This document shows, piece after piece, positions 1 through 13,465 of a stretch of DNA of 13,465 nt. A program made the position numbers and the translations under genes. The notes beneath the pieces are model-generated. The model made no database searches, had not been told where the DNA came from, and worked only from the letters and a program-made list of their open reading frames with translations. The DNA comes from a virus: UHGV virus genome UHGV-0042147. One strand, given 5' to 3'. How positions within the stretch are numbered: the stretch's first letter is position 1; every line of letters begins with the position of its first letter.

Positions 1-55
1 ATTTTTAAGAGCCTCACCTTCAATGGTGGTTAGTGCGTCCTGCTGATGTGCTTAG

Positions 56-116
56 TATCACCGCCAGTGGTATTTATGTCAACACCGCCAGAGATAATTT
101 ATCACCGCAGATGGTT
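56..116 (-). promoter_or_regulatory. Leftward operator/promoter OL1-OL2-OL3 with pL (lambda type)
   Basis: Three 17-bp operator sites: TATCACCGCCAGTGGTA (56-72), CAACACCGCCAGAGATA (80-96), TATCACCGCAGATGGTT (100-116). pL -10 (GATACT on minus strand, plus coords 54-59) and -35 (TTGACA, 77-82) overlap OL1/OL2. Matches lambda OL as I remember it. Confidence 0.9.
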
Positions 117-264
117 ATCTGTATGTTTTTTATATAGATTTATTTTTTTGCAGGGTTGTGTGGATTGGGAAGGTGATCGAGAGATCTGAATTGCGATGTT
201 TAGTGAGTTGTATCTATTAATTTTGAAATAAATACAATTGGTTATGCGTTTTTTGGGGGGCGTT

Positions 265-296
265 AGGCAAAGAAAACCCGGCGCAGATGCCGGGTT
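265..296 (-). terminator. Intrinsic terminator for leftward cI-operon transcript
   Basis: Perfect 6-bp GC stem CCCGGC (277-282) / GCCGGG (289-294) with 6-nt loop, extendable by two A-T pairs. On the minus strand the hairpin is followed by TTTTCTTTG. Lies just 3' of the 307-1212 gene stop. Confidence 0.6.
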
Positions 297-306
297 GTGG
301 TGGAGA

Positions 307-1212
307 TCAATGCTTATTTGGGAGTGCTGGTTTTTTTATCGACTCTAATAGCTCGGAGGCGTTACTAATCTTTTTGTTCCCAAGGTAATTTGGCAGTTTT
401 TCCATTGCGTAATTATCGTGTAGCCATTTTCTGAACACGCCAAGTGCCTCAATAGGATAAATCCAAGCTGTTATATGCTTATTTGCAGCTGACTGCCTGT
501 AATTTTCGGGGAATAAATGTGGGTACTGCACCCTTTCCCCGAATTTCTCAGATAGCCCATTAGCTGTCCAATACTTTCCCCAGTGAATTCCAACACTTCC
601 ATCCAAAGATGTGGTGTCATCCATTGGGAATCCTCCTCCGATCAGGTTCATGGCAATGTCAGCTATCTCTCTGAATACTGCAAAATGAGTTGTCGGTATC
701 TGATCGTTTAGCTTAATCCTTGCTCTATAGTTCTCGAATGAGATATCTATTGAAGCATTTGGGTTGTAATTTGACTTTTCATAAATCATTCGCTTAAGCG
801 TGTACTCAGCCAAGCGAACAAAATTACCTATTGCGACTGACCTATCAAAATTGGTGGCATCTAGAGCGTAGTAACGGAGGATAGCCATGCAAACATAGTC
901 AGGATAAGCATGAGTTTCCACGTTTGAGCTATTTAAAACGCGAGTGTATAGCTTTTCGACGTTATGAAACCCTTTCTCAGCTAAATACGCAGCTACTTTT
1001 TGACCTCTGGGTTTGTTTTTCTCTGTGTTCCAGTTTGATGTGAACACCCTCAGTGGCGTGTCATCAATGCCGCATAACTTTGCGAGACCGTAGAGAGTTA
1101 GGTAAGGAGTTCCATCATTGAGAACGCCCATAGGAATATCATCAGAAACAACCTCTACTACAGGGAAAAGCTGCATTTGATGCAGGGATTCGCTATTGCT
1201 GTTAATCGACAT
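307..1212 (-). CDS. Hypothetical 301-aa protein at the rexAB position; N-terminal KilA-N-like domain; candidate exclusion/abortive-infection protein (BstA-like architecture)
   Basis: Uninterrupted 301-codon ORF co-oriented with and directly downstream of cI, between cI and OL. No resemblance to lambda RexA or RexB as remembered. N-terminal segment (GTPYLTLYGLAKLCGI...YPDYVCMAILRY) resembles KilA-N/APSES-type DNA-binding domains. Function is inferred from position and rough domain pattern only. Confidence 0.8.
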   Translation of the reverse strand: MSINSNSESLHQMQLFPVVEVVSDDIPMGVLNDGTPYLTLYGLAKLCGIDDTPLRVFTSNWNTEKNKPRGQKVAAYLAEKGFHNVEKLYTRVLNSSNVETHAYPDYVCMAILRYYALDATNFDRSVAIGNFVRLAEYTLKRMIYEKSNYNPNASIDISFENYRARIKLNDQIPTTHFAVFREIADIAMNLIGGGFPMDDTTSLDGSVGIHWGKYWTANGLSEKFGERVQYPHLFPENYRQSAANKHITAWIYPIEALGVFRKWLHDNYAMEKLPNYLGNKKISNASELLESIKKPALPNKH

Positions 1213-1298
1213 ATCTTAATGATTTCCTTATTTTTATTGTAGGGATCTTCTTTTTTATTTCCTACATCTAGATGCGTATAAAGTCTCTTGCTGCGGAC

Positions 1299-2088
<790 letters not shown>

Positions 2089-2103
2089 GGTTGCATGTAC
2101 TAA

Positions 2104-2313
<210 letters not shown>

Positions 2314-2320
2314 ATAACCC

Positions 2321-2352: not shown

Positions 2353-2431
2353 ATCAAATTAAACCACACCTATGGTGTATGCATTTATTTGCATACATTC
2401 AATCAATTGTTATCTAAGGAAATACTTACAT

Positions 2432-2710
2432 ATGCAACTTACAAGTACTCGCAAGAAAGCGAATGCAATTACAAGCAACATCCTGAATCGAATTGCTGTA
2501 CGTGGCCAGCGAAAGGTTGCCGACGCGTTAGGGATTAATGAATCGCAAATTTCGCGATGGAAAGACAGCTTCATCCCAAAAATGGGAATGCTTCTGGCTG
2601 TTCTTGAATGGGGTGTTGAAGACGAGGAGTTGGCGGAACTGGCTAAGCAAGTAGCCAGAATGCTGACAAAAGAAAAGCCTCAAGACTGCTGCAACAGTTT
2701 TGAGGCCTGA
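2432..2710 (+). CDS. cII: CII-like transcriptional activator
   Basis: Start at ATG 2432, preceded by TAAGGA (2415-2420). 92 aa with the CII-family motif ...SQISRWK...P.....LLAVLEWGV.... The ORF track's 2372 start is an upstream in-frame extension into nutR/tR1 and is unlikely. Confidence 0.85.
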   Translation: MQLTSTRKKANAITSNILNRIAVRGQRKVADALGINESQISRWKDSFIPKMGMLLAVLEWGVEDEELAELAKQVARMLTKEKPQDCCNSFEA

Positions 2711-2744
2711 TGTAGAAAGACTGGATCAATCCACAGGAGTAATT

Positions 2745-2906
2745 ATGACAAAACGTCGTAAGAAATACCAGGAAAAAGAAGAGATTCGACACCCTGATTC
2801 ACCTGAGGGATTAGTGGTAGCCGCAGCAAATAACAGGGCGTTCGCAGAGCGCCTTGTTGGTGTTTACAGACTAGCCAAAGCAGGAGTGAAACATGGGCGT
2901 CGTTAA
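2745..2906 (+). CDS. Small basic hypothetical protein (53 aa) between cII and O
   Basis: ATG at 2745 with GGAG 5 nt upstream (2736-2739). 53 codons, lysine/arginine-rich N-terminus. The 3' end overlaps the O start by 14 nt. No recognisable family. Confidence 0.35.
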   Translation: MTKRRKKYQEKEEIRHPDSPEGLVVAAANNRAFAERLVGVYRLAKAGVKHGRR

Positions 2907-3811
2907 GTTAGCTGATTACAGGCCTCAACTGGAGGTCGTGGAGCATCGCGTGGCAGAACTCGAAGATGGCTACACTCGGACTGCAAACACACTGTTAGAA
3001 GCCGCCATGCTTTCTGGACTTACTCTACATCAGTTACTGATTGTTATGGCTGTGTGGCGCAAGACATACGGTTACAACAAAAAAATAGATTGGATCGGAA
3101 ACGAACAGTTCGCTGAACTCACTGGCATGGCACCAACCAAATGCTCTACCGCCAAAAACGAGCTTATCAGAATGGGAGTTCTCATTCAGGTGGGGCGTCA
3201 AGTTGGTATGAATACAAACATTTCCGAGTGGAAAACGAAAGTTAACGGATTCGGTAAAACATTTACCAATTCGGTAAAACAAACCTTCACCAAATCGGTA
3301 AAAAGCAATTTACCGAATCAGTCAAACACAAAAGACAATATACAAAAGACAATAAATACAAATACCCCCTTACCCCCCCCCCCNNNNNNNNNNNNNNNNN
3401 NNNNNNNNNNNNNNNNNNNNNNNNNNNNNNNNNNNNNNNNNNNNNNNNNNNNNNNNNNNNNNNNNNNNNNNNNNNNNNNNNNNNNNNNNNNNNNNNNNNN
3501 NNCGCAAGGCAGAACGAATCGACTATGAATCCTTCCTGAACGCCTACAACACCGAAGTCGGTGACAGACTGCCACACGCTGTTGCGGTCAACGAGAAACG
3601 CAAACGTCGCCTGAAGAAAATCATTCCGCAACTGAAAACGCCAAACGTGGACGGTTTCAGAGCGTATGTCAGGGCGTTTGTGCATCAGGCCAAGCCGTTT
3701 TACTTCGGAGACAACGACACTGGCTGGACGGCAGATTTTGATTACCTGCTGAGGGAAGATTCGTTAACGGGAGTACGGGAAGGGAAGTTTGCAGACAGGG
3801 GGATTGCATGA
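2893..3811 (+). CDS. O: Replication initiator O-like protein (iteron-binding N-terminal domain, P22 gene 18-like C-terminal domain), interrupted by an N run
   Basis: N-terminal part (2893-3383) matches the lambda O N-domain pattern (LEDGY.R..N.LLEA...L...Q..I..A..RKTYG.NK..D.I...Q..E.TG......[10 protein letters not shown]). The ori iterons lie inside it. After the N run a 102-codon frame (3503-3811: [39 protein letters not shown]...) ends with TGA 3809-3811, overlapping the helicase ATG at 3808. Frame across the gap cannot be verified. Confidence 0.8.
3249..3318. repeat. Replication origin iterons inside the O gene
   Basis: Direct repeats ATTCGGTAAAAC at 3249-3260 and 3269-3280, a degenerate copy AATCGGTAAAAAG at 3293-3305, and an inverted copy TTTACCGAAT at 3309-3318, at about 20-24 bp spacing. 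Followed by an A/T-rich segment with a 13-bp direct repeat ACAAAAGACAATA (3328-3340, 3342-3354). Same layout as lambda ori. Confidence 0.75.
3384..3502. other. Run of 119 N (unresolved sequence, probable assembly gap) after an 11-C homopolymer
   Basis: N characters at 3384-3502, directly after the C run at 3373-3383. Confidence 0.99.
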
Positions 3812-5184
3812 GACAGGATATCGAAGCGAGCGTTATCGGTGGCTTGCTGATTGGTGGATTAACACCAACCGCCAGCGACGTTCTGGCAACGCTGGAGCCG
3901 GAAGCGTTTTCAATTCCGCTCTACCGGAAAGCCTTCGAAGTTATCCGCAAGCAGGCGAGAAACAGAAACCTAATCGACGCGCTGATGGTTGCCGAGGCGT
4001 GCGGAGAGGAGCATTTCACGTCAATCCTGATGACCAGCAAAAACTGCCCGAGTGCCGCAAACCTGAAGGGATATGCCGGAATGGTCGCGGATAACTATCA
4101 CCGCCGTCTGGTGCTGGAAATCATGGATGAAATGCGTGAACCAATTCAGAGCGGAACCATCGACGCATCGAGTCAGGCGATGGATGAGCTTGTAAAGCGT
4201 CTTTCAGCCATCAGAAAGCCCCGTGACGAGGTTAAACCGGTACGGTTAGGGGAAATCATCACCGACTACACTGACACGCTTGACAGGCGTCTGAGGAACG
4301 GAGAAGAGTCAGATACCCTGAAGACCGGAATCGAAGAACTTGATGCCATCACCGGAGGGATGAACGCGGAAGACCTGGTGATAATCGCTGCTCGTCCTGG
4401 TATGGGGAAAACCGAACTGGCGCTGAAGATTGCCGAAGGCGTTGCAAGCCGCGTTATTCCTGGTTCTGACGTCCGGCGCGGAGTGTTGATTTTCTCGATG
4501 GAAATGAGCGCATTGCAGATTGCAGAGCGAAGCATTGCCAACGCCGGGAGGATGTCGGTTAGCGTACTGCGAAATCCTGCATCGATGGATGACGAAGGCT
4601 GGGCGCGTGTTGCTAACGGCATGAGTCAGCTTGCAGATTTGGATGTATGGGTAGTCGATGCCTCGCGGTTATCGGTAGAAGAAATTCGCTCAATCGCAGA
4701 GCGGCACAAACAGGAAAATCCAAACCTGTCACTCATCATGGCGGATTATCTTGGCCTGATTGAGAAGCCGAAAGCAGACCGCAACGACCTCGCAATTGCT
4801 CACATCTCAGGAAGCCTGAAGGCGATGGCGAAAGACCTGAAAACGCCAGTTATATCCCTAAGTCAGCTTTCGCGCGATGTTGAGAAGCGACCAAATAAAC
4901 GCCCGACAAACGCAGATTTGCGTGATTCAGGAAGCATTGAACAGGACGCAGACTCAATCATCATGCTCTATCGGGAAGCGGTATATGACGAGAACAGTAG
5001 CGCCGCGCCATTTGCTGAAATCATTGTGACGAAAAACCGTTTTGGCTCGCTTGGTACGGTTTACCAGCGGTTCTGCAACGGACACTTTGTTGCATGTGAC
5101 CAGGATGAAGCCAGACAGATTTGCACAGCATCAAATGCACCTGCTGCGCGTGGCAGACGATATGCACAAGGGGCTGACGTATGA
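3808..5184 (+). CDS. Replicative DNA helicase, DnaB family (phage P22 gene 12-like)
   Basis: 458-aa ORF. Walker A ARPGMGKT, Walker B-like [11 protein letters not shown], DnaB C-terminal motifs ([22 protein letters not shown]). Start overlaps the O stop (ATGA). P22 gp12 is also 458 aa. Confidence 0.93.
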
Positions 5185-5264
5185 CCATCTACATCACTGA
5201 GCTGATAGCAGGCCTGCTGGTAATCGCAGGCCTTTTTATTTGGGGGAGGGTAAATCGTGGCTGA
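5181..5264 (+). CDS. Tiny hydrophobic peptide (27 aa), putative
   Basis: ATG 5181 overlaps the helicase stop (ATGA). Encodes [27 protein letters not shown] with one hydrophobic helix. Too short to support without other evidence. Confidence 0.3.
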
Positions 5265-5463
5265 GTTAATTTTCTCTGCATTGAGGATTCTCGGTGCTAT
5301 GTGGATGGTGGCGACGTTCATTGTTGTTGCCAGCAGTTTTGTCCGGTTGGTAGGCGAAGGTAAAGACCTGGTGGGTGTGCTTTTCGGTAGCATTTTCCTG
5401 TGGGTGATTATCGGTGTTATGCCTGTTGTCGTAGCAAAAGTGGCGTGGCGTTTTGTGAGTTGA
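5257..5463 (+). CDS. Small membrane protein (68 aa, two predicted transmembrane helices)
   Basis: GTG start 5257, 7 nt after GGAGG (5245-5249), overlapping the stop of the 27-aa ORF. Two hydrophobic segments (ILGAMWMVATFIVVASSFV and VLFGSIFLWVIIGVMPVVVA). Stop 5461-5463 sits just before the ninB RBS. Confidence 0.45.
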   Translation: MAELIFSALRILGAMWMVATFIVVASSFVRLVGEGKDLVGVLFGSIFLWVIIGVMPVVVAKVAWRFVS

Positions 5464-5470
5464 GGTAACG

Positions 5471-5917
5471 ATGAAGCAAATATACATGCTTCGCAACGAA
5501 GCAATCAGAAATAACGCCATAGACGCAATACTCTCACTTCCCATCGACGACAAGTCACCTCATGAAGTCCACGTTAGAGAACCCAAACGCAGCAAAGCGC
5601 AGAATGACCGTATGTGGCCGATGCTGAACGATGTTTCGCGTCAGGTGCTATGGCATGGTCAACGGCTGGCGCCGGAAGACTGGAAAGACCTGTTCACTGC
5701 CCTGTGGCTTAAGACCAAAAAACTGGAGCAACGAAGTGTGCCTGGTATCGATGGTGGCGTTGTCATGCTTGGCGTGCGTACCAGCAAAATGCGAAAGGCC
5801 AGCATGACTGAGCTTATCGAAATCATGTTCTGGTTCGGCTCAGAGCGCAACGTGCGATGGAGTGATGACTCCCGGCGAGAGTATGAATGGTCACAACGAA
5901 AAGGGAAGGCTGCATGA
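5471..5917 (+). CDS. ninB: NinB (Orf-family recombination mediator)
   Basis: 148 aa. Motifs shared with lambda NinB as remembered: QN..W..L.DVSRQV.WHG, ...W...F.A, C-terminal WSD......EW....G..AA. Confidence 0.9.
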   Translation: MKQIYMLRNEAIRNNAIDAILSLPIDDKSPHEVHVREPKRSKAQNDRMWPMLNDVSRQVLWHGQRLAPEDWKDLFTALWLKTKKLEQRSVPGIDGGVVMLGVRTSKMRKASMTELIEIMFWFGSERNVRWSDDSRREYEWSQRKGKAA

Positions 5918-6441
5918 CTATCAAATCAAATACGCCAGCACACGACAAGGACTGCTGGCAAACGCCGCTTTGGCTTTTTGATGCACTGGATATTGAGTTT
6001 GGATTCTGGCTGGATTCGGCAGCGAGCGACAAAAATGCTCTGTGTGCTCACTGGCTAACTGAGGCCGACGACGCGCTCAATTCTGAGTGGGTAAGCCACG
6101 GTGCAATCTGGAATAACCCACCGTACAGCAATATCAGGCCGTGGGTGGAAAAAGCCGCTGAGCAGTGCATACAACAACGACAGACGGTAGTGATGCTTGT
6201 GCCAGAGGATATGTCTGTCGGATGGTTCAGCAAGGCTCTGGAGAGTGTTGACGAAGTTCGCATCATCACTGATGGACGGATTAATTTTATCGAACCATCG
6301 ACAGGGCTGGAGAAGAAGGGAAACAGCAAAGGCTCAATGCTGCTGATTTGGCGACCGTTCATCAGTCCTCGACGGATGTTTACCACCGTATCCAAAGCGG
6401 CATTGATGGCGATCGGGCAGGGCGTCAGGAGGGCTGCATGA
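5914..6441 (+). CDS. Phage-type DNA N6-adenine methyltransferase (Dam family, orphan)
   Basis: Start ATG 5914 overlaps the ninB stop (ATGA); RBS AAGGGAAGG at 5901-5909. N-terminal [27 protein letters not shown] and catalytic NPPY motif (WNNPPYSN). No adjacent restriction endonuclease. Occupies the lambda ninC position. Confidence 0.85.
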
Positions 6442-6620
6442 GACGACAGCGACGAAGTATCACCGACATCATCTGCGAAAACTGCAAATACCTTCCAACG
6501 AAACGCTCCAGAAATAAACGCAAGCCAATCCCAAAAGAATCTGACGTAAAAACCTTCAACTACACGGCTCACCTGTGGGATATCCGGTGGCTAAGACATC
6601 GTGCGAGGAATACAAGGTGA
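6438..6620 (+). CDS. ninE: NinE
   Basis: 60 aa [60 protein letters not shown] matches lambda NinE as remembered. ATG 6438 overlaps the methyltransferase stop. Confidence 0.8.
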
Positions 6621-6787
6621 TTGACCCAAATCGAAGTTACGAACAAGAAAGCGTCGAGCGGGCTTTAACGTGCGCTAACTGCGGTCAGAAGCTGCATGTG
6701 CTGGAAGTTCACGTGTGCGCCGATTGCTGCGCAGAACTGATGAGCGATCCGAATAGCTCAATGTACGAGGAAGAAGACGATGAATGA
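6617..6787 (+). CDS. ninF: NinF
   Basis: GTG start 6617 overlaps the ninE stop (GTGA). 56 aa with CANCGQ...HVCADCC zinc-ribbon-like cysteines and an acidic C-terminus, as in lambda NinF. Confidence 0.7.
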
Positions 6788-7502
6788 GTTAATAAATGGC
6801 AATGCCATCAAAATGACAAGCATTGAAATCGCTGAGTTGGTGGGAAGTCGTCCAGATAACGTAAAAATATCAATAGAGCGCCTGGCTAAATCTGGAGTTA
6901 TTCAACTTCCTGCATTGCAGGTTTTCGAAAAAATCAATAACTTAGGACTGCGCCGTAGTGTCGAGGCTTACGTCTTCGAAGGCGAACAAGGTAAGCGCGA
7001 CAGCATTATTGTCGTTGCCCAGTTGTCGCCGGAATTCACCGCTCGCCTTGTTGACCGTTGGCGAGAGCTTGAAGAAGCTGCGGTTAATATCCCCAAAACG
7101 TTACCGGAAGCGTTGCGCCTTGCTGCTGATCTTGCTGAGCAGAAAATGCAACTGGAAAACCAGCTCGCAATTGCCGCACCTAAAGTTGAGTTTGCCGATC
7201 GCGTTGGCGAGGCCAGCGGAATTTTGATTGGAAACTTTGCAAAGGTTGTCGGTATTGGTCCAAACAAACTGTTTGCGTGGATGCGCGATCACAAAATCCT
7301 TATTGCTTCAGGTTCCCGGCGCAATGTGCCAATGCAGGAATATATGGATCTCGGCTATTTCACAGTGAAAGAAACAGCGGTCAACACAAATCACGGAATA
7401 CAGATATCGTTCACCACAAAAATCACCGGGCGTGGTCAACAGTGGCTGACCAGAAAGCTGCTCGATAACGGAATGCTGAAAGTAACAGGGGAGGCTGCTT
7501 AA
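6780..7502 (+). CDS. Rha-family / KilAC-domain antirepressor-like protein
   Basis: 240 aa. N-terminal Rha/AntA-like segment (MTSIEIAELVGSRPDNV). C-terminal antirepressor KilAC-like segment (GILIGNFAKVVGIGPNKLFAWMRDHKILI...YMDLGYFTVKE). Start overlaps the ninF stop. Confidence 0.75.
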   Translation: MNELINGNAIKMTSIEIAELVGSRPDNVKISIERLAKSGVIQLPALQVFEKINNLGLRRSVEAYVFEGEQGKRDSIIVVAQLSPEFTARLVDRWRELEEAAVNIPKTLPEALRLAADLAEQKMQLENQLAIAAPKVEFADRVGEASGILIGNFAKVVGIGPNKLFAWMRDHKILIASGSRRNVPMQEYMDLGYFTVKETAVNTNHGIQISFTTKITGRGQQWLTRKLLDNGMLKVTGEAA

Positions 7503-7792
7503 TGGCTAATCTACGCAAAGAAGCACGCGGCAGAGAATGCCAGGTACGTATTTACGGCGTATGCAATGGTAATCCTGAAACTACAGTTCTGGCACATTAC
7601 CGGATGGCTGGAATTTGCGGAACGGGAATGAAGCCTGACGACCTGATCGGCGCATGGGCTTGTAGCGCGTGTCACGATGAAATCGACCGACGCACCCATA
7701 ATCTCGACAACAAAGACGCCAGACTTTACCACCTCGAAGGCGTGATCAGGACGCAGGCGATACTACTGAAGGAGGGGAAGATTAAGCCATGA
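7502..7792 (+). CDS. ybcO: DUF1364-family protein (ybcO-like, putative zinc-binding nuclease-like)
   Basis: 96 aa with RGRECQVR...CNGNPETTVLAH...CSACHDEIDRR. Resembles DLP12 ybcO as remembered and, like it, sits directly upstream of rusA. Start overlaps the preceding stop (TAATG). Confidence 0.7.
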   Translation: MANLRKEARGRECQVRIYGVCNGNPETTVLAHYRMAGICGTGMKPDDLIGAWACSACHDEIDRRTHNLDNKDARLYHLEGVIRTQAILLKEGKIKP

Positions 7793-8151
7793 ACGAATAT
7801 CAGTTTGTGCTTCCATACCCGCCGTCGGTGAATACCTACTGGCGAAGACGGGGAAGCCAATACTACATCAGCGATAAAGGCCAGAAATACCGAAAAGACG
7901 TTCAGCAAATCATCCGCCAACTTAAGTTAGACATTTTCACCAAATCACGACTCCGCATCAAAGTAATCGCAGACGTTCCGGACTCCCGCCGCCGCGACCT
8001 CGACAACATCCTGAAAGGTTTACTCGACTCCCTTATCCACGCCGGATTTGCGGAAGACGACGAGCAATTCGATGACATTCGCGTAATTCGTGGTGTGAAA
8101 GTACCAGGTGGAAGGCTTGGAATAAAAATCACCGAACTGGAGAACGCATGA
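7789..8151 (+). CDS. rusA: RusA Holliday-junction resolvase
   Basis: 120 aa. LPYPPSVNTYW, RRRDLDN and a C-terminal GGRLGIKITEL block characteristic of RusA. ATGA overlap with the upstream gene. Confidence 0.9.
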   Translation: MNEYQFVLPYPPSVNTYWRRRGSQYYISDKGQKYRKDVQQIIRQLKLDIFTKSRLRIKVIADVPDSRRRDLDNILKGLLDSLIHAGFAEDDEQFDDIRVIRGVKVPGGRLGIKITELENA

Positions 8152-8336
8152 ACGCCACAATTCAAACGATACCAGAGCTTCTTATCCAGACACGAGGCAA
8201 TCAGACCGAAGTGGCAAGGATGCTTTCCTGCGCAAGAGGAACAGTGCTCAAGTACAACCGAGACAGCAAAGGCGAGCGTCACGTAATAGTTAACGGCGTC
8301 CTGATGGTCAAACAGGGCAAAAGGGGAAGGCCATGA
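8148..8336 (+). CDS. ninH: NinH (Fis-like HTH protein)
   Basis: 62 aa. ...TIPELL....GNQTEVARML.C.RGTV.KY... matches the lambda NinH pattern. ATGA overlap with rusA. Confidence 0.8.
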   Translation: MNATIQTIPELLIQTRGNQTEVARMLSCARGTVLKYNRDSKGERHVIVNGVLMVKQGKRGRP

Positions 8337-8956
8337 GACTCGAAAGCGTAGCTAAATTTCATTCGCCAAAAAGCCCGATGATGAGCGACTCACCACGGGC
8401 TACGGCTTCTGACTCTCTTTCCGGTACTGATGTGATGGCTGCTATGGGGATGGCGCAATCACAAGCCGGATTCGGAATGGCTGCATTCTGCGGTAAGCAT
8501 GAACTCAGCCAGAACGACAAACAAAAGGCTATCAACTATCTGATGCAATTTGCACACAAGGTATCGGGGAAATACCGTGGCGTTGCAAAGCTTGAAGGAA
8601 ATACTAAGGCAAAGGTACTGCAAGTACTCGCAACATTCGCTTATGCGGATTATTGCCGTAGTGCCGCGACGCCGGGCGCAAGATGCAGAGATTGCCACGG
8701 TACAGGTCGTGCGGTTGATATAGCAAAAACAGAGCAGTGGGGGAGAGTTGTTGAGAAAGAGTGCGGAAGATGCAAAGGCGTCGGTTATTCAAGGATGCCA
8801 GCAAGCGCCGCATATCGCGCTGTAACGATGCTAATCCCCAACCTTACCCAACCCACCTGGTCACGCACTGTTAAGCCGCTGTATGACGCTCTGGTGGTGC
8901 AATGTCACAAAGAAGAGTCAATCGCAGACAACATTTTGAATGCGGTCACACGTTAG
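8333..8956 (+). CDS. Q: Late-gene antiterminator Q
   Basis: 207 aa beginning MRLESVAKFHSPKSPMMSDSPRATASDSL, with zinc-finger cysteines CRDCHGTG...CGRCKG. Matches lambda Q as remembered. ATGA overlap with ninH. Confidence 0.96.
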   Translation: MRLESVAKFHSPKSPMMSDSPRATASDSLSGTDVMAAMGMAQSQAGFGMAAFCGKHELSQNDKQKAINYLMQFAHKVSGKYRGVAKLEGNTKAKVLQVLATFAYADYCRSAATPGARCRDCHGTGRAVDIAKTEQWGRVVEKECGRCKGVGYSRMPASAAYRAVTMLIPNLTQPTWSRTVKPLYDALVVQCHKEESIADNILNAVTR

Positions 8957-8998
8957 CAGCATGATTGCCACGGATGGCAACATATTAACGGCATAATA

Positions 8999-9036
8999 TT
9001 GACTTTTTGAATAAAGTTGGGTAAATTTGACCCAAC
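8999..9036 (+). promoter_or_regulatory. Late promoter pR' with Q-utilisation (qut) site
   Basis: -35 TTGACT (8999-9004), -10 TAAATT (9022-9027), immediately downstream of Q as in lambda. Predicted transcript start about 9034-9035. Confidence 0.8.
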
Positions 9037-9227
9037 GATGGGTTAATTCGCTCGTTGTGGTAGTGAGATGAAAAGAGGCGGCGCTTACTACCGATTCCGC
9101 CTAGTTGGTCACTTCGACGTATCGTCTGGAACTCCAACCATCGCAGGCTGAGAGGTCTGCAAAATGCAATCCCGAAACAGTTCGCAGGTAATAGTTAGAG
9201 CCTGCATAACGGTTTCGGGATTTTTTA
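9035..9227 (+). ncRNA. pR' leader transcript (lambda 6S RNA equivalent) ending at tR'
   Basis: About 193 nt from the predicted pR' start to the terminator T-run. tR' is a long hairpin (CCCGAAAC 9171-9178 pairing with GTTTCGGG 9212-9219) followed by TTTTTT (9221-9226). The 5' end is approximate. Confidence 0.6.
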
Positions 9228-9678
9228 TATCTGTGCAACAGGTAAGAGCATTGAACCCGCAGACCTCGCGGAATTGGTGAAAGGTGCCGCGCAGTGCTCT
9301 TATCGTTGTGGTGAAGCTCAATGGCGAGCTAGCAGATAGGCGACAGTGAAAATACTAGTCATGTAGCTGACCGCCGCGCGTACTGCAATCGGCAGCGCAC
9401 CGATGGAAGCCGGTTCGATTCCGGCCGCCACAACCCAAACTGAGCCGTAGCCACTGGCTATCCTGAATTCATCAGTGATAGTTACGCTGCTGCCTTCTAC
9501 ACATGATCTTCGTGAAAGCGGGTGGCAGGAGGTCGCGCTAACAACCTCCTGCCGTTTTGCCCGTGCATATCGGTCACGAACAAATCTGATTACTAAACAC
9601 AGTAGCCTGGATTTGTTCTATCAGTAATCGACCTTATTCCTAATTAAATAGAGCAAATCCCCTTATTGGGGGTAAGAC

Positions 9679-10002
9679 ATGAAGATGCCAGAAAAACATG
9701 ACCTGTTAGCCGCGATTCTCGCGGCAAAGGAACAAGGCATCGGGGCAATCCTTGCGTTTGCAATGGCGTACCTTCGCGGCAGATATAATGGCGGTGCGTT
9801 TACAAAAACAGTAATCGACGCAACGATGTGCGCCATTATCGCCTGGTTCATTCGTGACCTTCTCGACTTCGCTGGACTAAGTAGCAATCTCGCTTATATA
9901 ACGAGCGTGTTCATCGGCTACATCGGTACTGACTCGATTGGTTCGCTTATCAAACGCTTCGCTGCTAAAAAAGCCGGAGTAGAAGATGGTGGAAATCAAT
10001 AA
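9679..10002 (+). CDS. S: Holin S (dual-start S107/S105)
   Basis: 107 aa starting MKM (Met1-Lys2-Met3 dual-start motif), three hydrophobic segments. Matches lambda S. Confidence 0.95.
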
Positions 10003-10462
10003 TCAACGTAAGGCGTTCCTCGATATGCTGGCGTGGTCAGAGGGAACTGATAACGGACGTCAAAAAACCAGAAATCATGGTTATGACGTCATTGTTGGCG
10101 GAGAGCTATTCACTGATTACTCCGATCACCCTCGCAAACTTGTCACGCTAAACCCCAAACTCAAATCAACAGCCGCAGGACGTTACCAGCTTCTTTCCCG
10201 TTGGTGGGATGCCTACCGCAAGCAGCTTGGCCTGAAAGACTTCTCTCCGAAAAGTCAGGACGCTGTGGCATTGCAGCAGATTAAGGAGCGTGGCGCTTTG
10301 CCGATGATTGATCGCGGTGATATCCGTCAGGCAATCGACCGTTGCAGCAATATCTGGGCTTCACTGCCGGGTGCTGGTTATGGCCAGTTCGAGCATAAGG
10401 CTGACAGCCTGATTGCAAAATTCAAAGAAGCAGGCGGAACGGTCAGAGAGGTTGAGGTATGA
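9986..10462 (+). CDS. R: Endolysin R (lytic transglycosylase)
   Basis: 158 aa [22 protein letters not shown]... matches lambda R. Overlaps the S 3' end by 17 nt. Confidence 0.95.
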
Positions 10463-10896
10463 GCAGAGTCACCGCGATTATTTCCGCTCTGGTTATCTGC
10501 ATCATCGTCTGCCTGTCATGGGCTGTTAATCATTACCGTGATAACGCCATCGCCTACAAAGAGCAGCGCGACAAAGCCGCATCCATCATCGCTGACATGC
10601 AGAAGCGTCAACGTGATATAGCAGAACTAGACGCCAGATACACAAAGGAGCTTGCTGATGCTAACGCGACTATCGAAAGTCTCCGTGCTGATGTTTCTGC
10701 TGGGCGTAAGCGCCTGCAAGTCGCCGCCACCTGTGCAAAGTCAACGACCGGAGCCAGCAGCATGGGCGATGGAGAAAGCCCAAGACTTACAGCAGATGCT
10801 GAACTCAATTATTACCGTCTACGAAGCGGAATCGACAGGATAACCGCGCAGGTTAACTACCTGCAGGAGTACATCAGGACTCAGTGCCTGAAATAA
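10459..10896 (+). CDS. Rz: Spanin inner-membrane subunit Rz (i-spanin)
   Basis: 145 aa. N-terminal transmembrane helix ([18 protein letters not shown]), then a coiled-coil-like region. N-terminus matches lambda Rz; middle and C-terminus diverge. ATGA overlap with R. Confidence 0.85.
10658..10843 (+). CDS. Rz1: Spanin outer-membrane lipoprotein Rz1 (o-spanin), embedded in Rz in the +1 frame
   Basis: ATG 10658 with AAGGAG 7 nt upstream (10645-10650). 61 aa with a signal peptide ending in a lipobox-like VSAC, followed by a proline-rich stretch ([12 protein letters not shown]). Lies entirely within Rz. Confidence 0.7.
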
Positions 10897-10928
10897 TTTT
10901 TTTGCAAATCACAAAGTCTATTTAATGA

Positions 10929-10951
10929 GCCTCGCGATGCGGGGCTTTTTT
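10929..10951 (+). terminator. Intrinsic terminator downstream of the lysis cassette
   Basis: 7-bp stem including one G-U pair (GCCTCGC 10929-10935 / GCGGGGC 10939-10945), 3-nt loop, followed by TTTTTT (10946-10951). Confidence 0.6.
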
Positions 10952-11100
10952 ACATCTGAATTTCACAGCGCATCTCACGCGCATATTACATCACCCGAGC
11001 CTTTCAGAAAGTTGAGCCTGAGAACTGCCGTATATGGTGGCGACCATCTCGGGGCGGCTTTTCTGTGAGACAGGCTCACTTTCTAAAAGGTAAAGACGCT

Positions 11101-11619
11101 ATGAATCATCAATTGGCTAATCTCGATTTCCGGGACATGGTGGTTGTTTCTGGTGATCGCGTGATCACAACCTCCCGCAAGGTAGCAGCTTACTTCGACA
11201 AGCAGCATCACCACATCATTCAGAAAATCGAAAAGCTAGACTGTTCGGATGAATTTCTAACCAGCAACTTTTCGCGGGTTACCTATGAACACAAGGGTAA
11301 TCAGTATGTTGAATATGAAATTTCCAAAGACGGTGCGATGTACATCATCATGTCGTTTACCGGCAAAAAAGCTGCCGCCATCAAAGAGGCGTTTATCAAA
11401 GCATTTAATTGGATGCGTGACAGGCTGATGGAGATGGCTCACTCATACCAAAGAGAGCACAACGAGTTAATGCTGGAGTTCATGAAGGAAAAGGATGTTG
11501 CCAGTATGTCAGGACGCTTGCTGAACCGCTGGGGCAGGATCAAAAAACCGCAACTCATAGCAAGAATCAAAAGGCTTGAGCAGCAGGCGCAAATATCGAT
11601 CCCCGGACTGCCAAAGTGA
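11101..11619 (+). CDS. rha: Rha-family phage regulatory protein
   Basis: Probable start ATG 11101 (MNHQLANL...). Rha N-domain pattern VVVSGDRVITTSRKVAAYFDKQHHHIIQKIEKL. Positioned after the lysis genes, as rha is in P22-like phages. The ORF track's 11065 start is an upstream in-frame alternative. Confidence 0.8.
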   Translation: MNHQLANLDFRDMVVVSGDRVITTSRKVAAYFDKQHHHIIQKIEKLDCSDEFLTSNFSRVTYEHKGNQYVEYEISKDGAMYIIMSFTGKKAAAIKEAFIKAFNWMRDRLMEMAHSYQREHNELMLEFMKEKDVASMSGRLLNRWGRIKKPQLIARIKRLEQQAQISIPGLPK

Positions 11620-11971
11620 CCATTCCAAAGCCCATCTACGGGTGGGCTTGATAATGAAACCGTGATTTACATCCCCACAATCCGGGTATGTAAAAGATAG
11701 TTCAGGCGAGAACAGATTTAACTAAATCTGTGCACCACCAGTTACGGCAGTACCACGAAGCAACCCAAGCCAGTAAGTGGGGAAATAACACTGGCAGCCA
11801 CTGAAAGATGAACCTCCAGCCTTATGGCAAAAAAGATTCTTTGTGGTGGCGGACTGATGGAAAGACATCGGTTATTGCAGAGGCCATTCAATGAGTGGTC
11901 TCGACAATGGCTTATACCCTGCACGGGATAACTTAACTGATATCCCTTTTAACGGATAAACGGAGCCAACA

Positions 11972-12214
11972 ATGGCAGAGATTATTCCCATGACTGAAGA
12001 ACAGAAATTCCAGCTAGAGATTTACAAACTGGTCATGAACCAGAACGCAGCAGCAGAGGAAGCATTTCAGTTCATTGGTACTGACGAGCTGAAGCTTGAG
12101 CTATTCAAAATTCACTTCCAGTCAGGCGGCGCTAATTCGGATATCACGACCCGCACTATCGAAGCGGTGCGTAAATCGAAGGAAGCGTTAGACCTGTTCA
12201 CTACCGGAGCATAA
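11972..12214 (+). CDS. Hypothetical protein (80 aa) upstream of terminase
   Basis: ATG 11972 with GGAG at 11961-11964. Acidic, helical-looking product. No family recognised. Confidence 0.5.
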   Translation: MAEIIPMTEEQKFQLEIYKLVMNQNAAAEEAFQFIGTDELKLELFKIHFQSGGANSDITTRTIEAVRKSKEALDLFTTGA

Positions 12215-12293
12215 ACATGGCAACTCAAGGTTTCGACAACCCATCCAAATTCCGCGATGAATGGGATAAGCAAGCAGAAGGGAAATAATCAAT

Positions 12294-12719
12294 ATGGCGA
12301 CTGAGAAAAAGAACGTCGGTCGCCCTTCGGATTACCTGCCGGAGGTGGCTGATGATATCTGTGCGCTGCTTGCCTCCGGGGAAAGTCTGGTTAAGGTTTG
12401 CAAGCGCCCCGGCATGCCAGCAAAGGCTACTGTATTTCGCTGGCTGTCAGAGCATGACGAATTTAGAGACAAGTACGCGAAGGCAACTGAGGCACGAGCT
12501 GATTCTATTTTCGAAGAGATATTCGAAATTGCTGACAATGCGATTCCAGATGCTGCTGAGGTGGCAAAGGCAAGACTTCGCGTTGATACCCGCAAATGGG
12601 CGCTGGCCCGAATGAATCCACGTAAGTATGGCGACAAGGTAACTAATGAGCTTGTCGGCAAAGACGGCGGCGCAATCCAGATTGAAACATCACCGATGAG
12701 CACTCTATTCGGAAAATGA
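12294..12719 (+). CDS. Terminase small subunit (TerS)
   Basis: 141 aa. N-terminal [26 protein letters not shown]...TVFRWL is the HTH pattern of a common phage small-terminase family. ATGA overlap with the large subunit. Not lambda Nu1. Confidence 0.8.
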
Positions 12720-13438
12720 CCTCGATTAATCCTATCTTTGAACCGTTCATTGAGGCGCATCGCTACAAAGTCGCCAAAGGCGGTCGAGGTAGCGGTAAAT
12801 CATGGGCAATTGCGAGGCTGCTTGTTGAAGCGGCGCGTCGGCAGCCGGTGCGCATCCTCTGTGCTCGTGAACTGCAAAACAGTATCAGTGATTCGGTAAT
12901 CCGGCTGCTTGAAGATACCATCGAGCGTGAAGGGTATTCAGCTGAGTTTGAAATTCAGCGTTCAATGATTCGTCATCTCGGAACGAATGCTGAATTCATG
13001 TTCTACGGCATCAAAAACAACCCGACGAAGATTAAATCGCTCGAAGGTATTGATATCTGCTGGGTGGAAGAAGCGGAAGCGGTAACGAAGGAATCATGGG
13101 ATATCCTGATCCCAACCATCCGCAAGCCATTTTCCGAAATATGGGTGAGCTTCAACCCGAAAAACATCCTCGACGATACCTATCAGCGATTCGTAGTAAA
13201 CCCTCCCGATGATATTTGTCTGCTGACGGTGAACTACACCGACAACCCGCACTTTCCTGAAGTTCTCCGTCTGGAGATGGAAGAGTGTAAACGCAGAAAC
13301 CCGACACTGTATCGTCACATCTGGCTTGGTGAGCCAGTAAGCGCAAGTGATATGGCAATCATCAAACGTGAATGGCTTGAAGCTGCAACTGATGCGCACA
13401 AGCAACTCGGATGGAAAGCGAAGGGTGCGGTTGTTTGA
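12716..13438 (+). CDS. Terminase large subunit, ATPase domain only (240 aa; truncated, split or frameshifted)
   Basis: Walker [10 protein letters not shown], Walker B/catalytic Glu in ICWVEEAEA, coupling motif SFNP. The ORF stops at 13436-13438 after about 240 aa with no nuclease domain. The window ends 27 nt later. Confidence 0.8.
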
Positions 13439-13465
13439 AGTGGTCAACAAAAACTGGCCACCGAG

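Follow-up and report, generated by a model that had tools for sequence, protein, structure and literature searches.

The gene between cI and t_imm in a lambda-type immunity region is bstA-Ec, with a predicted position for its aba self-immunity element

The stretch of DNA analysed here, referred to below as the window, comprises 13,465 nucleotides of the virus genome UHGV-0042147. At its left end lies a lambda-type immunity region in which a single gene occupies the space between the cI repressor and the t_imm terminator. The features of this region are given below with their coordinates, their strand and the evidence used. Annotations were transferred from phage CL707 (EF120459.1) by taking the window coordinate as the CL707 coordinate minus 2336; both PRM and OR1-3 are annotated in that identical record.

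54..116, minus strand: pL and its operators, OL1 (56-72), OL2 (80-96) and OL3 (100-116), transferred from the CL707 annotation
82..54, minus strand: pL promoter, from a consensus promoter scan
265..296, minus strand: t_imm terminator, made up of a hairpin (296..275) and a T-rich tail after it, from a terminator scan, the lambda alignment and the Timm annotation of EF120459.1
297..1298, minus strand: swapped cassette of 1002 bp that replaces lambda rexB-rexA, from BLASTN against lambda
307..1212, minus strand: bstA-Ec coding sequence, 301 aa with an ATG start, from the ORF list, profiles, BLASTP and identity to NCTC10963
1213..1298, minus strand: leader of 86 nt from the cI stop codon to the bstA start, from the sequence and a promoter scan
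1229..1225, minus strand: AAGGA ribosome-binding site of bstA, from the sequence
1299..2012, minus strand: cI repressor, 237 aa, with HTH_3 and Peptidase_S24 domains
2023-2039, 2046-2062 and 2070-2086: the operators OR3, OR2 and OR1, respectively, transferred from the CL707 annotation
2060..2088, plus strand: pR promoter, from a consensus promoter scan
2113..2313, divergent from cI: cro

The limits of the cassette were set by a BLASTN comparison with lambda. Positions 1-296 of the window correspond to lambda 35537-35826 at 89% identity, a block that includes OL1-3, pL and the t_imm hairpin and in which the OL/pL stretch (54-116) aligns without any difference. Positions 1299-2372 correspond to lambda 37227-38300 at 98.3%, and this second block starts exactly at the stop codon of cI, a gene 98% identical to lambda cI at the DNA level. 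The initial annotation, which had described OL, cI, OR and cro as lambda-like, was thus correct on this point. No lambda counterpart was found by BLASTN for 297-1298, which stands in for the 1400 bp of lambda 35827-37226, that is, rexB and rexA. The ORF list and the same comparison also confirmed that the rexA-rexB slot holds one 301-codon ORF, co-oriented with cI.

cI and bstA are both on the minus strand, with 86 nt between the stop codon of the former and the start codon of the latter, and the same cI-bstA arrangement was found in 10 other contigs with an identical protein. A consensus scan of the minus strand between the two genes (1213-1298) returned no promoter-like site, from which we infer that cI and bstA are co-transcribed. 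The terminator hairpin that had been reported downstream of the ORF is indeed present, but it does not belong to the gene as had been supposed: its stem (296..275) is conserved with lambda t_imm, it is located within the lambda-homologous flank, and it is annotated as Timm in EF120459.1, so it is the shared lambda t_imm homologue and not a terminator of the cassette's own.

Judged from its sequence, the ORF is a full-length BstA. The PADLOC BstA model matched aa 8-286 with an E-value of 1.3e-105 (profile positions 4-281 of 292), and PHROG 6287, "BstA abortive infection system, replication inhibitor", matched aa 5-301 at 6e-133 (positions 3-304 of 304). The alignment to BTP1 BstA that the initial annotation had proposed as a check runs end to end, with 42% identity over the whole length (130/306 identical, aa 2-300, E 5e-84, BLASTP). 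BstA was the only significant defence family in the PADLOC scan, which otherwise gave a marginal HTH match (E 0.0015), and several RefSeq E. coli genomes label the gene "BstA C-terminal domain-containing protein".

The C-terminal ~150 aa had been thought to match nothing recognisable, but they match the Pfam domain PF26567 (BstA_C). This domain is recorded on the exact window protein in precomputed annotation, and a database search showed it on 115 of the 116 homologues, the exception being a truncated 174-aa hit. Local Pfam-A and NCBIfam scans gave no match to the window protein, the local copies evidently predating the PF26567 model, and the BstA_C assignment therefore comes from the precomputed annotation together with the PADLOC and PHROG models.

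An AlphaFold2 model was built from a 40-sequence alignment (mean pLDDT 83.6, pTM 0.52). It consists of a disordered tail (aa 1-13), an alpha/beta, DNA-binding-like N-terminal domain (~aa 17-147) and a mainly helical C-terminal BstA_C domain (~aa 157-291). A profile search found no solved relative among PDB sequences, and structure comparison gave no informative neighbour for the C-terminal domain. The N-terminal domain weakly resembles antirepressor, Bro-N, KilA-N and APSES DNA-binding domains, a likeness at the level of the fold at best, and a few members of the family show weak HTH-type Pfam matches. These resemblances could be taken to indicate a KilA-N/Bro-N/Ant-type antirepressor or a prophage transcription regulator without a role in defence. 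Such a reading is extremely unlikely, as hmmscan found no match to KilA-N (Pfam PF04383), Bro-N or ANT at E<=10 in the window protein and 39 homologues, as the C-terminal domain is specific to BstA, and as the gene product is identical to a protein with experimental abortive-infection defence (see below), which contradicts a purely regulatory role. The published "KilA-N(-like)" label is compatible with these results, which provide no independent confirmation of it.

The position of the gene also raises the question of a Rex-like mechanism. Lambda RexAB, a pair of proteins, is thought to act by membrane depolarisation. The window gene shares with rexAB the slot between cI and t_imm, the orientation, the terminator and presumably the PRM transcript, and both are abortive-infection systems. 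In contrast to the lambda pair, the cassette encodes one protein, modelled as a single soluble molecule with two domains, that is unrelated to RexA and RexB in both sequence and structure and falls, as stated above, into BstA as its sole significant PADLOC defence family. The published data on BstA describe a block of phage DNA replication, and a DNA self-immunity element has been described for BstA only. Exclusion by membrane depolarisation is therefore the reading to which we give the least credence of all. The slot itself was equated with lambda rexAB by Owen et al., citing Degnan et al. (PMC8585504).

The gene could be identified beyond the level of the family. An exact-sequence look-up placed the window protein on CAADJH010000002.1 (E. 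coli NCTC10963) at 1520979-1521884, our locus L094, and Table S1 of Owen et al. gives BstA-Ec (E4V89_RS07420) on NZ_CAADJH010000002.1 at 1520985-1521881 (PMC8585504). A mere coincidence of coordinates was ruled out by the identical sequence: the L094 DNA agrees with the window at every base of the 3' end of cI, the leader, the coding sequence and the terminator, and a one-base homopolymer indel beyond the hairpin is the sole difference. The protein is 100% identical to BstA-Ec of NCTC10963 and its gene likewise follows a lambda-type cI; the differences are confined to the prophage backbone around the locus, such as the replication and N-side genes. The forward primer used by Owen et al. to clone bstA-Ec matches window positions 1275..1298 exactly; the reverse primer, owing to a single-nucleotide difference in a G run, found no site with 3 or fewer mismatches. 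In addition, window positions 200-2320 match GenBank EF120459.1 at 100% identity; this 2007 record (Degnan et al. 2007) covers the phage CL707 immunity region and lists the gene as CL70704, a hypothetical protein.

The gene is thus already known, since the identical locus and protein were characterised experimentally by Owen et al. in 2021 (PMC8585504). The proposal of a BstA-like abortive-infection cargo next to the repressor was borne out by PADLOC, PHROG, BLASTP and the identity to the published bstA-Ec, and this cargo is not new: it is a published, experimentally validated defence gene in the rexAB slot. We hold with high confidence that the gene is bstA-Ec, a member of the BstA prophage abortive-infection family, in a reading that takes in the mechanism and the placement of aba-Ec proposed below.

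The identical BstA-Ec protein is present in many prophage backbones. In E. coli PK12 (L092, CP074031.1, 2219-3906), the identical protein and its leader are found behind a different repressor of 231 aa that still shares an identical 3' end with lambda cI, which suggests that a recombination junction lies within the C-terminal region of the repressor.

Three BstA proteins have been characterised, from BTP1, from K. pneumoniae Kp52.145 and, as BstA-Ec, from E. coli NCTC10963 (PMC8585504). BstA is made constitutively in the lysogen; when a sensitive phage infects, the protein collects at the DNA of that phage and stops its replication, and the infected cell still lyses while the epidemic is halted, so the defence operates at the level of the population (PMC8585504). 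The replication block was demonstrated with BstA-BTP1 (PMC8585504). When expressed in Salmonella LT2, BstA-Ec gave protection similar to that of BstA-BTP1, and it also defended E. coli MG1655; against coliphages it was slightly weaker than BstA-BTP1 (PMC8585504). Suppression of BstA by an aba element carried on a replicating molecule allows the lytic growth of the prophage itself, and each BstA homologue has its own cognate aba, which is not interchangeable between homologues (PMC8585504).

Applied to the window, this would mean that bstA is transcribed together with cI from PRM and that the transcript ends at t_imm. Once the prophage is induced and replicates, it would multiply the copies of aba-Ec and thereby neutralise BstA, presumably through binding of aba to the N-terminal DNA-binding domain of the protein, and the prophage would then be free to replicate lytically. 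Direct binding between BstA and aba is unproven, because BstA foci are not lost when aba is supplied (PMC8585504).

Another role has been considered for this family. The BTP1 record is still named st313-td, the homologue having first been named for virulence phenotypes, and Owen et al. cite both virulence and anti-virulence phenotypes for it, with a mechanism that is not known (PMC8585504). A main role in host virulence or anti-virulence, with defence as a secondary effect, is nevertheless very unlikely: the association of the BstA family with prophage repressor loci extends to many non-pathogens, among them soil and marine Proteobacteria and Verrucomicrobia, and its conserved aba-like architecture makes sense only for phage self-immunity. 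The only live alternative concerns where aba-Ec lies.

The aba of BTP1 is a 63-bp element made of 29 bp upstream of bstA-BTP1 and the first 34 bp of the gene; its ends are CCCGCC direct repeats 56 bp apart, both of which are required, and the 63-bp element is sufficient (PMC8585504). BstA-BTP1 and the window protein have in common the two-domain layout, the slot downstream of the repressor and the full-length identity reported above, and in both loci the start codon lies between direct repeats spaced by 56-57 bp. The repeat is CCCGCC in BTP1 versus ATCCCT in the window, and, measured from the repeats, the start codons of the two loci are offset by ~5-6 nt. From this geometry the following element was predicted:

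1184..1246, minus strand: predicted aba-Ec self-immunity DNA element of 63 bp, delimited by a direct repeat pair with BTP1 geometry

The upstream ATCCCT copy (1246..1241; sequence and repeat scan) is in the leader, 34 bp upstream of the ATG, and the second copy (1189..1184) is within codons 8-10, at +23 from the ATG. With a spacing of 57 bp, the copies delimit 63 bp that enclose the ribosome-binding site and the start codon. The downstream copy coincides with codons of the disordered tail (aa 1-13) of the AlphaFold model.

A 6-bp repeat such as that of the window is expected by chance at spacings of 56 or 57 in ~4% of sequences. As a lone 6-mer is weak evidence, the geometry was tested across the family. 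Exact repeats of at least 6 bp flanking the start were counted at 82 genomic loci from a one-genome-per-species collection, with dinucleotide shuffles and a region centred 300 bp within the gene as controls. Such repeats were found at a spacing of 56 for 20 loci and of 57 for 15 (35/82), where the shuffles gave an expectation of 1.9 and 1.3, respectively (~3 together), and the inside-gene control gave 0 and 1. When mismatches were tolerated, the best repeat fell at 55-58 bp in 36/82 loci, compared with 5/82 in the control. After clustering of the proteins at 60% identity, 15/30 clusters were positive versus 0-6 for any other pair of spacings. The excess was also seen in an independent sample of 69 distinct viral-contig loci, with 9 loci at 56 and 19 at 57 (28/69) against a mean of 1.5 elsewhere. 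Repeats at 87 bp were in excess too; these were set aside as a coincidence of the coding sequence, in which ATGG occurs both at the start codon and at the conserved Met28-Gly29.

The repeats keep their place while their sequence changes. Loci of different phyla share both the spacing and the placement with respect to the conserved MGVL codon; the distance from the downstream copy to this codon has a median of 68 nt overall and lies at 58-61 nt in the enterobacterial group. The sequence, by contrast, is specific to each locus: CCCGCCA in BTP1, a 19-mer in L057, GGAAATCACCCC in L046, TTTGGTCACCA in L054 and GATCGCCA in L019. About half of all loci have no exact repeat of at least 6 bp. Closer to the window, orthologous pairs occupy the same two positions as GATCTCT/GATCCCT in L006, GATCCC/GATCCC in L008 and GATCTCAG/GATCGCAG in CP53, and within the clade of the window the two copies are often imperfect (e.g., GATCTC vs GATCCC).

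We infer that aba-Ec corresponds to 1184-1246. This position stays a prediction, as the whole bstA-Ec locus, from the primer site at 1298 to beyond the terminator, is the only unit that was tested: P22 carrying this locus became immune specifically to BstA-Ec (PMC8585504). With self-immunity transferred to P22 by so large a fragment, the gene could be bstA-Ec and its self-immunity element could be elsewhere in the locus, the 56/57-bp repeats then being an autoregulatory operator or a coincidence. The repeat of the window is only 6 bp long, its copies in the sister alleles are imperfect, and the two copies bracket the ribosome-binding site and the start codon, a natural place for autoregulation. 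Against this, aba function in BTP1 requires the repeats at the equivalent positions and needs nothing beyond the 63-bp element, and the spacing and the position relative to MGVL are retained across phyla despite the turnover of the repeat sequence. Roles of the repeats in self-immunity and in autoregulation could also coexist. We consider a location elsewhere unlikely, if well short of negligible, and retain 1184-1246 as the predicted aba-Ec. The repeat geometry thus offers a concrete and cheap prediction of the aba-Ec site.

Taken over the whole family, the data lean, by a little, towards aba having a predictable architecture, in which each locus would have its own direct repeat pair at a spacing of 56-57 bp, with the first copy in the leader and the second in the disordered-tail codons, and would pass the pair on as a unit with the N-terminal DNA-binding module. 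If this is true, the cognate aba could be read for any BstA locus, as is done here for 1184-1246; its location would be predicted in the same way in some 40-50% of the scanned BstA loci, and specificity might come from the recognition of two spaced half-sites by the N-terminal domain. A search of Owen et al. and of the other searchable literature found no statement of a family-wide 56/57-bp repeat pattern.

Some further properties of the repeat region were observed. In the clade of the window (L101-L131), both repeat copies usually contain GATC and hence form Dam sites 57 bp apart; in the window itself (1247..1241 and 1190..1184, minus strand) the downstream copy is mutated to AATC. A Dam methylase is encoded by the same prophage at 5887-6441. 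Dam sites as a general feature of aba were rejected, as the BTP1 repeats have no GATC and the downstream copy of the window has lost it. Next to the downstream repeat, at 1185..1171 on the minus strand (codons 10-15), is a small hairpin, CTGCAT-CAA-ATGCAG, followed by CTTTTCC; it is probably incidental, since L006 and L007, the alleles closest to the window, do not form a perfect stem.

The bstA gene is mosaic among E. coli genomes. The 3' part of the gene (~600 bp), which encodes the C-terminal half, was found at >=99% identity in 33 of 5426 complete E. coli genomes, only 10 of which carry the window-type 5' part. In the other 23 (e.g., L003, from E. coli CP53), the leader and the first ~108 codons together are 76.5% identical to those of the window at the DNA level, and within this stretch the leader and the first eight codons are unrelated to the window's. 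The switch between alleles near codon 108 points to an intragenic recombination junction within the N-terminal domain. With a switch at this position, the leader travels as one module with the tail and the greater part of the N-terminal domain, apart from the C-terminal domain. On the evidence of these alignments, such a 5' module fits a unit of specificity joining the N-terminal domain and aba, and physical linkage alone could explain the pattern as well. The mosaic alleles constitute natural chimeras for mapping the specificity between BstA and aba, a question left open by Owen et al.

Beyond the immunity region, the window (2400-13465) is a mosaic of HK97-, HK620-, Kapi1- and CUS-3-like modules, of which the best single phage record covers <=69%. 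These modules encode a DnaB-type helicase instead of lambda P, NinB, Dam, YbcO, RusA, Q, a lysis cassette and an Sf6-like small terminase. Neither an Rfam nor a tRNA scan of the window gave a match. The gene for an O-like replication initiator (2893-3528) is interrupted by a run of 119 Ns at 3384-3502, which is either masked or unsequenced. Two genes for Rha-type regulators were noted, one with a KilAC/ANT antirepressor domain in the nin region (6780-7502) and one with an ORF11CD3 domain between the lysis genes and the terminase (11065-11619). Finally, a 68-codon ORF (5257-5463) lies between the helicase gene and ninB, and its small product is strongly hydrophobic.
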